64,000 bases of DNA, taken from the IMG/VR virus record IMGVR_UViG_3300027983_002383; one strand, written 5' to 3'. Under the pieces are notes generated by a model. That model searched no databases. It worked only from the letters and a program-made list of their open reading frames with translations, and was not told where the DNA came from. Shown here piece after piece: positions 16,320 through 33,856 of this stretch; position 1 is the stretch's first letter; the number at the start of each line of letters is the position of its first letter. This DNA comes from a virus. The translations under genes were made by a program, and so were the position numbers.

Positions 16320-16961
16320 ATGGGTTGTGATGTACATATGTTTGTTGAAAAGTATAATAATAATAGTGGAGAATGGTCACCGATTGGTAAGGTTCTTCCT
16401 GATATGGTTGCTATAGATAAGATTGTAAAATTTATGACCCACCATTTAGGTACTACACATAAAGAAGGTAAAGAACTGATTTTTAAATTCTTAAAAGGTG
16501 TAAAACCAACAACCAAATTCGAAGACTATGTTTTAAATATATTTTTACCTGAAGAAGTCCCTATGGAAGATGATGGATATAACTGGTGGGACAATGAAGG
16601 TAAATTATCATACCCATTTACCAGAGAACCATATAGTGGTAGAAACTACAATTTATTTGGTGCTTTGGCTAATGTGAGGAACTATACTATGGAAAAGGTT
16701 GCTGAATGGGAAAGAGGGTTGCCTGATGATGTTTCAGACGATATATGTACATTGAGTGATGAATGGGGTATTGATGGTCATTCCCACAACCATTTATATA
16801 TGGATGAGTTAGTTAATAGTAAGTATTATAAAATGACAGAAGATGAGTTAAATGAGTTAGGGTTAGGTACTCACTTTTTTAATGATACAGTGAATAATAT
16901 ATTAGATTTTGTTGATGCTGACTCTAAAGATATTAGAATAGTTTTTTGGTTTGATAATTAA
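16320..16961 (+). CDS. conserved phage hypothetical protein
   Basis: MGCDVH..VE, RNY.LFGALANVR, HSH, RIVFWFDN pattern typical of a phage family. Confidence 0.7.
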   Translation: MGCDVHMFVEKYNNNSGEWSPIGKVLPDMVAIDKIVKFMTHHLGTTHKEGKELIFKFLKGVKPTTKFEDYVLNIFLPEEVPMEDDGYNWWDNEGKLSYPFTREPYSGRNYNLFGALANVRNYTMEKVAEWERGLPDDVSDDICTLSDEWGIDGHSHNHLYMDELVNSKYYKMTEDELNELGLGTHFFNDTVNNILDFVDADSKDIRIVFWFDN

Positions 16962-17113
16962 TGATTATGAAAAAATACGATCAACATAAAGTTAAAAGAG
17001 GTGTCATTCGAAAGGATAAAATCGATGATGGTTTCTTTGATGGTAGGTTCGTTTCTAGGAGTGAAACCCCTAAAAATATCTATTCAAGGACGATTAAACA
17101 CAAAAAAAAGTAA
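16961..17113 (+). CDS. ArfA-like alternative ribosome-rescue factor candidate (50 aa, not in ORF track)
   Basis: MIMKKYDQHKVKRGVIRKDKIDDGFFDGRFVSRSETPKNIYSRTIKHKKK; D..F..R.E..K...Y.R..KH pattern as in E. coli ArfA. Confidence 0.55.
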   Translation: MIMKKYDQHKVKRGVIRKDKIDDGFFDGRFVSRSETPKNIYSRTIKHKKK

Positions 17114-17199: not shown

Positions 17200-18621
17200 A
17201 TGGATACTTCACAAACAGATATGGTAAAAACAGATGAAAAGGTAACTCTAACCGACAACGGTATGGTTACAAACCCAACAACGTTGAACAGTTGTGTGGA
17301 TCTTTTCTTTTCCATAGGTGCTATGAGAGGTAAGTCTAAAGATAAAGTTATTTCGTTATTTAACGAAGCTTACGAAGAAAACCCATTAGTTGCGTCTAAA
17401 GTTTTGTTTTGGACTCGAGATGTTAGAAGTGGGGCTGGAGAGAGACAAATCTTTAGAGATATATTATCTCACTTAGTTACTACATCACCACAAACAGTTA
17501 GAAAAAACATTGGACTGATTCCTGAATTTGGAAGATGGGACGATGTATTAGTGTTGATTGGAACAGAATTAGAGGACGATGCGTTCACACTAATTAAAAC
17601 TGCGTTAATCAATGAATCTAAGATGTGTTCAAAATGGATGTCAAGAAAAGGTGATGTGTCTAACAAACTTAGAAAACTCTTTAAGATGACACCTAAAGAA
17701 TATAGAAAGATGTTGGTTAACTTAACTAATGTTGTAGAATCTAAGATGTGTTCTAATAAATGGGAGGATATTGACTATTCGAAACTACCTTCTTTAGCTT
17801 CATCTAGATATCAAAAATCATTTGTAAAAAATGATACTGAAAGATATGAGGAATATAAGAAAGCATTAGTAGATGGAACTGCGAAAGTTAATGCTGGTGC
17901 AGTTTACCCATACGATATTATTAAAAGTATAAATAATGGTGGTGACAAAGTTGTTTCTCAGAAACAATGGGAGTCTCTTCCCAATTGGATGGAAAATTCA
18001 TCTGAATTAATACTACCCGTTGTGGATGTATCAGGATCTATGTGTTGTCCAGCTGGTGGTAACGATAACCTTAGTTGTATGGACGTTGCAATCTCATTAG
18101 GTATGTACATATCAGAAAGAAACGAAGGTAACTTCAAAGACTCTTTTATTACCTTCTCTAATACCCCACAACTACAATACTTAACTGGTGGACTTAGTGA
18201 AAGACTAGAACAACTTAGGAGAGCTGATTGGGGTATGAGTACTGATTTAGAAGCTGTTTTTAATTTGATTTTAAATCAAGCTAAAACATTCGACATCCCA
18301 CAGGATAAGATGCCAACTAAGATAATGATTTTATCAGATATGCAGTTTAATGAAGCAACACGTAGAGGTGATATAGGAGCTAATTCTATGATTGATACAA
18401 TGTATGAGGAAGCTGGATATAAAAAACCAGATATTGTATACTGGAATCTAAACTCCACTGGAGCTAATTTCCCAGTAGAATTTAATAAAAATGGTACCGC
18501 ATTGGTATCAGGGTTCAGTCCATCCATATTGAAATCAATTTTGGGCGGAAAGAATATGACACCAGAATCCATATTGATGGATACTGTTAATGATGAAAGA
18601 TATAGTGTAATAACTATATAA
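17200..18621 (+). CDS. DUF2828 family protein (TROVE/Ro-like helical region + vWA domain)
   Basis: TDNG...NPTT.NSCVDLFF, RDVRSGAGER, GRWDD, KW..RK, MIDAS-like DVSGSM, TFS, ILSDMQF, YWNL, VSGFSP. Confidence 0.88.
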   Translation: MDTSQTDMVKTDEKVTLTDNGMVTNPTTLNSCVDLFFSIGAMRGKSKDKVISLFNEAYEENPLVASKVLFWTRDVRSGAGERQIFRDILSHLVTTSPQTVRKNIGLIPEFGRWDDVLVLIGTELEDDAFTLIKTALINESKMCSKWMSRKGDVSNKLRKLFKMTPKEYRKMLVNLTNVVESKMCSNKWEDIDYSKLPSLASSRYQKSFVKNDTERYEEYKKALVDGTAKVNAGAVYPYDIIKSINNGGDKVVSQKQWESLPNWMENSSELILPVVDVSGSMCCPAGGNDNLSCMDVAISLGMYISERNEGNFKDSFITFSNTPQLQYLTGGLSERLEQLRRADWGMSTDLEAVFNLILNQAKTFDIPQDKMPTKIMILSDMQFNEATRRGDIGANSMIDTMYEEAGYKKPDIVYWNLNSTGANFPVEFNKNGTALVSGFSPSILKSILGGKNMTPESILMDTVNDERYSVITI

Positions 18622-18624
18622 GAC

Positions 18625-18636
18625 GTTCTTTGAAAA
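18625..18636 (+). promoter_or_regulatory. boxA-like antitermination element
   Basis: GTTCTTTGAAAA between DUF2828 stop and first structured RNA. Confidence 0.45.
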
Positions 18637-18640
18637 ATAT

Positions 18641-18795
18641 TTTGTGGTCTTAAGGAATAATTGCAGCAAATTAAACTTAAAACTAGGTCAGAGGGGCTTT
18701 GATAACCCCCCTAACTTTAAAAGGTGTAAATCGTTTGTAAAAACGATATATATCACTGTTAGGAAAAAGTGTCAAACCGATTCCGTAACCACAAA
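18641..18795 (+). ncRNA. structured ncRNA candidate 1
   Basis: 5'/3' closing stems TTTGTGGT/ACCACAAA and GGAAT/ATTCC; internal hairpins GGGG/CCCC, ATCGTTT/AAACGAT, CACT/AGTG. Confidence 0.6.
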
Positions 18796-18802
18796 TGTAT
18801 TA

Positions 18803-19058
18803 GATGTAAACGAATGGTTTCCGCAAAAAACCTACAAACTAAAAATAGAAACAGGTTTTCTACCCCCTTTACCTAAACGAACATAAAGGGGTTAACCATA
18901 GGTGAGGTTTAAATGGGATTGTCCCAACCTTTAGGTTATAAAACAGACCTCTTGAATTTGTCTCAAGTAAAATAAAGACATTCAGTGGGACTGAATTAAC
19001 AATCTACCGTAGGGACAGTCACTACGTAAAATAAATACTGAATCACCATTCCGACATC
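18803..19058 (+). ncRNA. structured ncRNA candidate 2, related to candidate 1
   Basis: Closing stems GATGT/ACATC and GAATGGT/ACCATTC; internal TAGAAA/TTTCTA, CCCCTTTA/TAAAGGGG, GAGGT/ACCTC, ATTCAGT/ACTGAAT. Confidence 0.6.
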
Positions 19059-19066
19059 GAATCATT

Positions 19067-19106
19067 AAAAGAGGGTATTTTTTCATTAAAGTATCCTCTT
19101 TTTTTT
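19067..19106 (+). terminator. intrinsic terminator
   Basis: AAAAGAGGGTAT/GTATCCTCTTTT plus T-run closing the DUF2828-ncRNA unit. Confidence 0.75.
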
Positions 19107-19177
19107 GTGTAAACATTTACTGTTGAGGTTTTCTTCAGTAATATTAAACCAATAATAAGATATGATAAAATGAAAAA

Positions 19178-19651
19178 ATGAAAATAGTCACTAAAAATTG
19201 TAGTTTGAGTAAAGGTGTGAGGGGATATTTAGTTTACTTAACCGATGATAATGGAAATTCTTTAGAGTGTTTCGATGTTACAGGTGAAGAAGAAAGACTA
19301 GAAAAGGAAAATCAACTGAGTAAAGATCATGACATCAGTGAAAACGATATTGATTCAGTCTCTTTAGAAAAATATAAATCCCAACACAATAACTACACAC
19401 CATTAATTTTAGTTTTTTATCTTAATGAAGAGTTATTTACTATGACTGATGCGATTAAGACGTATGGTGAAAATGTGAGACAATACTTAGAAAATAAAGG
19501 TGATAACGTTAGATTATTCTTTTTACCAACTAAAGAATCAGAAAAAGTGACTTGTATTAACCCTGTGTTTATAGAAGATGAAGGTGAATTTGATAAGTTA
19601 AATGATCTGATAGAAGACATTACCAATAAATTTCAGGTTGGTGTAGAATAG
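19178..19651 (+). CDS. hypothetical protein
   Basis: ORF. Confidence 0.7.
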   Translation: MKIVTKNCSLSKGVRGYLVYLTDDNGNSLECFDVTGEEERLEKENQLSKDHDISENDIDSVSLEKYKSQHNNYTPLILVFYLNEELFTMTDAIKTYGENVRQYLENKGDNVRLFFLPTKESEKVTCINPVFIEDEGEFDKLNDLIEDITNKFQVGVE

Positions 19652-33782: not shown

Positions 33783-33856
33783 GGTCCCTTAGCTCAGTTG
33801 GTTAGAGCATCTGACTCATAATCAGAGGGTCGAAGGTTCGAGCCCTTCAGGGACCA
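33783..33856 (+). tRNA. tRNA with CAT anticodon, probably tRNA-Ile2 (lysidine type); CCA not encoded
   Basis: GGTCCCT/AGGGACC acceptor, AGCTCAGTTGGTTAGAGC D arm, TCTGA-CTCATAA-TCAGA anticodon arm, GGTTCGAGCC T arm; closely resembles bacterial ileX-type sequence. Confidence 0.95.

Follow-up and report, generated by a model that had tools for sequence, protein, structure and literature searches.

We describe here a gene for a Ro60-like protein and, directly behind it, two structured RNA units in a 64 000-nt stretch of viral DNA (IMG/VR record IMGVR_UViG_3300027983_002383; the whole stretch is called the window below). The gene (17200..18621, on the + strand, as are both RNAs and the terminator that follows them) encodes a 473-aa protein made up of a DUF2828 helical ring part and a DUF7788 von Willebrand factor A (vWA) part, and is followed by RNA unit 1 (18641..18795, ~155 nt) and RNA unit 2 (18803..19058, ~255 nt). 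Judging from comparative sequence data, the two RNAs are probably the partner RNAs of this protein, because the element that closes both of them, termed the handle in this work, recurs beside DUF2828 genes in very different phages. To the further proposal that both RNAs are bound by the protein at their handles, their inserts acting as effector or gate modules by analogy with Ro60 and its Y RNAs, we assign a probability of about 0.7. Particles of Ro60 and Y RNA are known in animals, in ~5% of bacteria and in a small number of phages; the present case would concern a far larger protein family with the Ro60 fold, travelling with an RNA family of its own and with a distinct, simple recognition element.

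A Ro60-like protein from a separate sequence family

The 473-aa protein matched two Pfam families (DUF7788, 3e-50; DUF2828, 4e-34) and the PHROG family phrog_850, annotated 'RNA-binding protein', and had no match in NCBIfam. Its AlphaFold (AF2) model, built with an alignment of 101 representatives, reached a predicted local distance difference test score (pLDDT) of 94.3 and bore out a preliminary description, made from the DNA letters alone, in which the DUF2828 protein had been called Ro/TROVE-vWA-like and a structural comparison with Ro60 had been suggested. The best 13 Foldseek matches in the PDB were all Ro60/TROVE proteins aligned over their full length (E 2e-9 to 2e-5; ~560 columns), among them Thermus phage Ro60, X. 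laevis Ro60, human Ro60 and Deinococcus Rsr, with isolated vWA domains ranking below them. Template modelling (TM) scores to X. laevis Ro60 reached 0.66/0.60 (0.60–0.66 overall; 0.64–0.66 by query). Against Swiss-Prot, the top five matches were RO60 from frog, mouse, Deinococcus, human and worm, followed by telomerase p80, another TROVE protein, so that only Ro60/TROVE rings led both searches. A sequence profile run against the PDB also had Ro60 entries as its four best matches, with weak E-values (0.0075–0.1) and aligned at the DxSxS of the MIDAS, the metal ion-dependent adhesion site. This site is complete in the window protein, and its residues (D276, S278 and S280 of DxSxS, T348 and D380) were invariant in 101 homologues.

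The protein thus has in common with Ro60/Rsr (TROVE + vWA) the helical-repeat ring, the C-terminal vWA fold and the MIDAS site, but it belongs to another sequence family (DUF2828/DUF7788), with 12–18% identity to Ro60/Rsr and without a TROVE match. Since the modelled structure matches Ro60 while Pfam TROVE does not match the sequence, the model indicates that the DUF2828/DUF7788 protein is a separate sequence family with Ro60 architecture. Its homologues in GenBank phages (711 records, 30–50% identity, full length) carry the annotations 'Ro-like RNA binding protein' or 'RNA-binding protein' (SEA-PHAGES, RefSeq, PHROG 850), and metagenomes hold thousands of clusters of the DUF2828 family. All clusters returned from the ESM Atlas and the AlphaFold DB were DUF2828/DUF7788, those of the AlphaFold DB including cellular proteins, one of them a plant-named entry.

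The Ro60 likeness of DUF2828 phage proteins is already known at the annotation level and from the PhageMaP preprint. There, gp130 of phage Bas63 is described as Ro60-like, lies upstream of a tRNA array and counters the ppl defence, and some of the 'tRNAs' near it were guessed to be Y RNAs (PMC11482910); gp130 is a putative DUF2828 member. Overexpression of gp53 of phage LeBron is mildly toxic (PMC13148394).

Two covarying RNA units behind the gene

The DNA that carries this locus is AT-rich phage DNA, found in DNA runs from freshwater and marine samples; the closest contigs obtained by the IMG/VR protein search were phage contigs of 71–254 kb, and a PHROG scan of ten large window open reading frames (ORFs), with an SbcC-like protein and an endolysin as its sole matches, did not resolve the phage type. 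Between the stop codon of the gene and the terminator lie 445 nt (18622–19066) without a conserved reading frame, in which the GC fraction rises to ~0.33 from the 0.23–0.26 of the intergenic DNA around and which fold more stably than their shuffles (z = -4.1). The intrinsic terminator (19067..19110; hairpin 19067–19102, a 15-pair stem followed by a T run) stands at the same place in all aligned relatives and closes the gene-plus-RNA transcription unit. The units begin 20 nt past the stop codon, and the interval between stop codon and unit 1 holds no terminator and no convincing promoter. A frame of 80–86 aa at 18644–18886 was considered as coding sequence and not kept, the longest frames of the relatives differing in strand and phase. 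Just past the terminator, a conserved word, AACAUUUAC(A/U)GUU, was seen at 19113–19125 of the window and at the equivalent position in its closest relatives (L001–L004); this word could serve the next gene (19178–19651) as a promoter element.

Folded alone (18640–18796), unit 1 had a minimum free energy (MFE) below that of all 200 dinucleotide shuffles (z = -3.3), and both the MFE and the centroid structure pair its ends. An outer helix (18642–48 with 18788–94) leads through an internal loop to the handle helix (GGAAU, 18654–58, with AUUCC, 18780–84), the 3' strand of which is followed by G18785. The single-stranded handle motif AAUUGCAGCAAA (18659..18670; core CAGCAA, 18664–69) is invariant or nearly so in 42 relatives, and its core is identical to that in handles of other phages, the whole handle reading GGAAU, AAUUG-CAGCAA, AUUCC-G. 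The insert (18693..18762) consists of a hairpin, GGGG-CUUUGAUAA-CCCC (18693–18709), and of a long irregular hairpin (18711–18762) capped by a GUAA tetraloop (18737–40; GAAA in most relatives), and its helices 3–5 change on both sides. The distal hairpin (18731–18746) is GNRA-capped and the conserved GGG-CUUUGAUAA-CCC hairpin lies 20 nt upstream of it, and a tertiary contact between tetraloop and hairpin is possible. For covariation, the covariance model R1 was built from 42 unit 1 sequences and pairs were counted on the 63 distinct sequences that it matched: the paired fraction of cells was 98%, compared with 83% after shuffling, and 19 of 22 pairs varied on both sides, a count reached by 0 of 500 shuffles and compared with 6–11 in slid controls. 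The alignment was fitted to R1 and so favours the structure somewhat; the margin is large.

Unit 2 likewise folded (18801–19060) to an MFE below that of all 200 dinucleotide shuffles (z = -3.1) with its ends paired. Its outer helix (GAUGU, 18803–07, with ACAUC, 19054–58) is followed by a loop, AAAC, and by the handle helix (GAAUGG, 18812–17, with CCAUUC, 19046–51, then CG). The single-stranded motif UUUCCGCAAA (18818..18827; core CCGCAA, 18821–26) completes a handle reading GAAUGG, UUU-CCGCAA, CCAUUC-CG; the 18-mer flanking it was exact in all relatives found, and a C at the variable position of the core is seen in 9% of the 128 handles from other loci. The large insert falls into two domains. 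The first (18851..18952) is a helix (18851–56/18947–52) around two hairpins (18863–71/18884–92, and 18893–18900/18932–38, the latter extended by 18904–07/18928–31 and 18913–18/18922–27), with two to four compensatory pairs per helix in the RNAalifold consensus. The second (18960..19044) comprises small hairpins with compensatory changes: GUC 18960–62/GAC 18977–79, AUUCAG 18980–85/CUGAAU 18991–96 and a third, tentatively placed at ~19004–19026. Unit 2 was too long for a covariance model here, and its pairs were counted with a script of our own over 66 sequences: 93.8% were paired as against at most 48% in slid controls, with 22 compensatory pairs as against 2–9. The outer helix covaries between G-C and A-U; it was missed by RNAalifold on the mixed 66-sequence alignment, which also left the last hairpin doubtful, and was taken from another RNAalifold consensus.

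In these respects the preliminary description had read the DNA well: the 445 nt are non-coding and GC-richer up to a strong terminator, the two tandem units have paired ends at the arms that it named (outer as well as inner helices), both carry the common 5' motif (GAAU..UU.C.GCAAA) and the 3' AUUCCG, and the covariation that it proposed to look for lies above the controls in each.

Four loci with ~75% amino-acid identity were recovered by the IMG/VR protein search, and their downstream RNA region had 83% column identity, so that the RNA region is at least as conserved as the protein. Scans of IMG/VR and metagenomes with RNA words, followed by nhmmer, brought the collection to 54 distinct sequences of unit 1 and 66 of unit 2. 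Inserts differ between subclades: in some relatives the internal loop of unit 2 holds an additional hairpin, in some the distal hairpins are swapped (two subtypes), and some have a shorter unit 1 whose 5' arm resembles that of unit 2; from this variation in sequence we conclude that the two units are paralogues built on one closure. A blastn search of the RNA region against GenBank phages gave no match.

The link between RNA and gene was also recovered from the RNA side. An 18-nt word of unit 2, used without any protein, fetched 120 metagenome stretches, 69 of which contained unit 2, and a DUF2828 homologue (57–85% identity) on the same strand ended 129–270 nt upstream in 52 of the 53 stretches that offered at least 700 nt of upstream DNA. 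The other word matches, which served as a negative control, were chance occurrences in unrelated coding DNA, with neither closing helix nor gene.

The handle beside DUF2828 genes of other phages

In its general form, the handle is a closing helix followed on its 5' side by an unpaired U-N-C-N-GCAA, with a G after the 3' strand. A CnGCAAA element had been expected near DUF2828 genes in the preliminary description; it does recur, but the conserved part is narrower, namely the helix and then U-N-C-N-GCAA, the GAAU belonging to the covarying helix. Applied as a pattern to the loci examined, the original motif gave three intergenic matches beside the DUF2828 gene of Aeromonas phage 4_4572, a locus with eight tandem units of ~55–65 nt. 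These have the form AG-helix, U-U/A-A/G-C, AGCAA, variable part, A-rich stretch, helix, CUG, and the sequence of the helix varies from unit to unit.

Handles (helix then C-N-GCAA) were found on the strand of the gene beside DUF2828 in 12 of 13 GenBank phage lineages, in units that mostly measure 50–65 nt. Citrobacter phage Mordin has four, placed between tRNAs, one of them with a permuted tRNA-like insert (recognized by eye); Listeria LP-125 and Staphylococcus SEP9 have three each, Campylobacter NCTC12673 two, and Vibrio V05 a single one, the 3' strand of which lies over the Shine–Dalgarno (SD) sequence and ATG of the gene. They also stand beside the gene in Enterococcus Porthos, Bacillus PK-3 and Sinorhizobium phiN3, and in two lineages of mycobacteriophages despite high GC, and in Citrobacter phage Ci1 the motif lies inside tRNA-shaped RNAs; one of the two Citrobacter lineages is Felix O1-like. 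Among 80 diverse IMG/VR loci (47–76% protein identity), 67 had handles (127 in all) whose helix measured 7 bp or more, on the strand of the gene and within 700 nt, compared with 16 loci on the opposite strand and 11–12 loci for the reversed motif.

A logo of 128 distinct handles had a 3-nt spacer in 55%, a U two bases before the core in 85%, a core of C-(A 66%, U 18%, C 9%, G 6%)-GCAA and a G after the 3' strand in 52%. Handles spanned 32 to >300 nt, so that the spans of ~130 and ~240 nt in the window fall within the range. The units may precede or follow the gene, number from one to eight in tandem, and also stand between tRNAs and, in some cases, behind promoter-like sites of their own. A second model, R2, built from 52 short units and run on five whole phage records, placed all but one of its matches below E = 1e-3 within 4.5 kb of the gene; these were mostly training units, and the informative part is that the rest of each record had almost no matches. 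The exception (E = 6e-5) is in Aeromonas phage 4_4572.

This wide spread of gene neighbourhoods bears on two other explanations. The first is that the units are stable RNAs whose partner is a different one, for instance host enzymes of tRNA processing or decay or some other phage protein, and are neighbours of the gene through the transcription unit or through residence in a tRNA-type region. Several phages do carry units in or beside tRNA arrays, tRNA-like inserts would serve tRNA enzymes as substrates irrespective of the action of the Ro-like protein, and Listeria phage LP-125 has an RtcB-like ligase nearby. We nevertheless regard this as unlikely, as only DUF2828 stays beside the handles across all lineages, as the linkage in the clade of the window is 52 of 53, and as the window units have no adjoining tRNA (the sole ARAGORN call in the window is a tRNA-Met at 33783). 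The overlap of the V05 handle with the ribosome-binding site and start codon of its own gene also fits recognition by the product of that gene.

That same overlap can be read in favour of the second explanation, by which the units would be cis parts of the DUF2828 mRNA, either stabilizing 3'-UTR structures or operators for autoregulation, rather than RNAs acting in trans; the lack of a terminator or convincing promoter ahead of unit 1 agrees with it as well. Its chances appear slightly poorer than those of another partner. The units occur on either side of the gene, in one to eight copies, between tRNAs and in part behind promoter-like sites of their own, and ~400 nt of covarying multi-helix RNA far exceeds what protection of a 3' end needs. 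Partner RNAs of the Ro60-like protein, acting in trans, remain the reading that we prefer for the two window units.

Further observations concern individual loci. The handle hairpin of Vibrio phage V05 (MT135024.1, L006:1923–1965) reads GACAUU, UUACAGCAA, AAUGUC, and its position over SD and ATG suggests, from the sequence, translational autoregulation by the DUF2828 protein. In Mordin (L009:4446–4570), elements recognized by eye as a T arm, an acceptor 3' strand with CCA, an acceptor 5' strand and a D arm follow one another in YrlA order. In Ci1 (L005:4352–4586), 3' of the DUF2828 gene and past a promoter-like site, there are tRNA-shaped RNAs in which inserts of 40–60 nt bearing ACAGCAA-like words replace the anticodon arm, and one of these RNAs is annotated 'tRNA-Pseudo-AAC'. 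Two IMG/VR loci that are nearly identical (L152:3950–4010 and L156:3950–3960) differ by a T-arm-like hairpin (GACAGGUUCAAACCCUGUC) inserted in the first handle unit, which shows gain or loss of tRNA-like pieces in the inserts. An unannotated tRNA (Rfam tRNA, 42.9 bits) directly precedes the first of the eight units of 4_4572 (L007:905–975), and this phage has a further strong handle match 4.4 kb upstream of the gene and another far off, at record position 18140. In the tRNA region of LP-125 (NC_021781.2, L011:450–1001), ~1 kb upstream of the DUF2828 gene, lies a ROOL RNA-like match to RF03087 (87.4 bits, E 2e-16, gathering score 99.1) that is unannotated in the record.

A candidate Ro-type particle and its known counterparts

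In the mechanism that we propose, the gene product, structurally a distant relation of Ro60 in which a helical-repeat ring is joined to a vWA domain with a metal site, would have as its partners the RNAs from 18641–19058, the counterpart of Y RNAs. Both are probably co-transcribed with the gene, since no terminator separates gene and RNAs and the only one follows unit 2, and would then be cut out by processing. Each RNA would offer the protein the same handle, an end helix of 5–7 bp with the unpaired U-N-C-N-G-C-A-A at once on its 5' side; in the window, a further outer helix and an internal loop enclose this handle, as is the case in classical Y RNAs. The inserts, which vary, would be the working ends, being large structured domains here and short hairpins or permuted tRNA look-alikes elsewhere, and, by analogy, could tether the ring to host RNA enzymes or gate entry into it. 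The purpose may be quality control of phage RNA or tRNA, recruitment of a host exonuclease (as phiLo Ro60 does with PNPase) or counter-defence.

A number of results weigh against this proposal. Adjacency alone is compatible with another binding partner as well. None of the 24 listed runs with the locus is on record as RNA, and an RNA-only query returned none. At the level of sequence, the protein had no match to Pfam TROVE (PF05731), DUF7788 and DUF2828 being its only matches at E <= 0.01; for the window units, there was no match to RF00019 (Y_RNA) or RF02553 (YrlA) at E <= 10, and no tRNA-like domain was detected by Rfam or ARAGORN. Among the other phages, Aeh1 (L008) had no clear handle beside the gene, and 13 of the 80 IMG/VR loci had none within 700 nt. 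Finally, R2 gave nothing at 18.6–19.1 kb of the window and chance-level matches elsewhere in it, a miss that we attribute to the long inserts (120–230 nt) of the window units.

Because R2 misses these units, their membership in the handle family rests on their features and on bridging forms. Such forms occur at the loci L156 and L152 (57% protein identity), where one unit resembles unit 1 in its outer helix, loop and handle, and where a 49-nt unit, GGUU-AUAAC-GAAUGA-GUUCAGCAAC...UCAUUC-CG-AACC, equals unit 2 minus its insert, with the same flanks; R1 reaches the units of these loci at E 0.002–0.03. A helix-plus-core scan of the whole window gave, beyond unit 2, only AT-rich chance matches, the 5-bp helix of unit 1 lying under the cut-off.

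One element of the preliminary description has been given up. The basic 50-aa ORF upstream of the gene (16961–17113), which had been called ArfA-like, matched nothing in Pfam, NCBIfam or PHROG, even with the limit set to E <= 10, and recurred only in L304, one close relative among all loci; given this lack of family match and synteny, there is no evidence for a combined module with translation rescue. The Ro/Y-type part of the module that had been suggested retains its basis in the Ro60 fold, the conserved covarying RNAs and the gene linkage (52 of 53).

Should the proposed binding be true, it would give a function to a widespread 'DUF' and to unannotated intergenic RNAs of model phages (Felix O1 types, Listeria A511/P100 types, Staphylococcus phages and mycobacteriophages) and would provide a tractable system for the role of Ro-type rings in infection, be it in tRNA/RNA quality control, nuclease recruitment or counter-defence, as well as a lead on the Class I RNAs of Dictyostelium. 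Of the handle RNAs examined, those of the window are the most elaborate: their double closure is of the Y-RNA-like kind, and their large inserts are conserved.

That Ro60 occurs with neighbouring Y-like RNAs is established for bacteria and for phages (PMC4201824, PMC12135203), and the systems compared here were Deinococcus Yrn1, Salmonella YrlA/YrlB and mycobacteriophage YrlA (PMC4201824) together with Thermus phage phiLo Ro60 and its Yrl1/Yrl2 (PMC12135203; PDB 9KOP, 9L5Y). Y RNAs have paired ends and a loop or bulge with a CGAA-type motif, to which YrlA adds a tRNA-like domain (PMC4201824, PMC12135203). The phage system resembles them in having one to several small RNAs beside the gene on the same strand, with 5' and 3' ends in a stem–loop–stem arrangement and with inserts that vary. 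It differs in its signature, which is a helix followed by an unpaired U-N-C-N-GCAA, whereas that of Y RNA is a bulged GGUCCGA/CGAA helix. Rfam, searched with the window region 18500–19250 at the gathering score and at E <= 10, gave nothing relevant, in keeping with the earlier statement that the units are not a described RNA family, and no description of the handle RNA family was found in the literature searched, including annotation sources and the PhageMaP preprint.

It might still be argued that the units are diverged ordinary members of the Y RNA or YrlA families, given their stem–loop–stem closure and their position no more than 450 nt from a Ro-like gene, on its strand. At the junction of loop and helix, unit 2 has AACGAAUGG, a sequence close to the YrlA motif GNCGAAN0-1G (PMC4201824); the corresponding sequence of unit 1 is AAGGAAU (AACGAAU in L001 and L002). 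The GAAU part of this helix, however, covaries freely in other phages, the invariant CNGCAA behind the helix is not among the YrlA features given in PMC4201824, and the two Rfam families and the tRNA-like domain are missing as noted above, so that ordinary membership seems very improbable. A kinship of another kind is found in the inserts of some relatives, which are permuted tRNA mimics of the YrlA type. In L213, one handle-closed unit has an insert that matches YrlA (RF02553) in its T-arm/acceptor/D-arm core, with 29 bits against a gathering score of 69 (E 9e-5, from a 161-nt local search). On the sequence evidence, the tRNA-like inserts of these relatives suggest a functional kinship with Y RNAs.

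The short phage units also resemble the Class I RNAs of dictyostelids (RF01414), which was the best Rfam family for seven of the eight units of 4_4572 and two of the three of SEP9, with scores for the short phage units of 19–30 bits against a gathering score of 41.5; the 155- and 255-nt units of the window had no match to it. Class I RNAs start with AAG, have a 6-bp covarying stem with an 11-nt motif after its 5' strand (conserving U3, C6, C9, A10 and A11) and end in CUGU; they have been reported as unique to dictyostelids, with Rnp1A as a direct binder (PMC7919456). The short phage units are alike in their length of ~60 nt, in the AAG start, in a covarying end stem of 6–7 bp, in CUUACAGCAA after its 5' strand, in a variable remainder and in the CUG(U) end. 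The window units differ, being long and having an extra outer helix, and the Class I description does not fit them as such. That phage handle RNAs and dictyostelid Class I RNAs form one family, with a DUF2828-type Ro60 paralogue as partner, is a speculative idea to which we give little credence. If true, a class of abundant amoeba RNAs to which no mechanism has been assigned would be partners of a Ro-like ring in the manner of Y RNAs, and Ro/Y particles would gain a second, mostly viral branch with a recognition code of its own.

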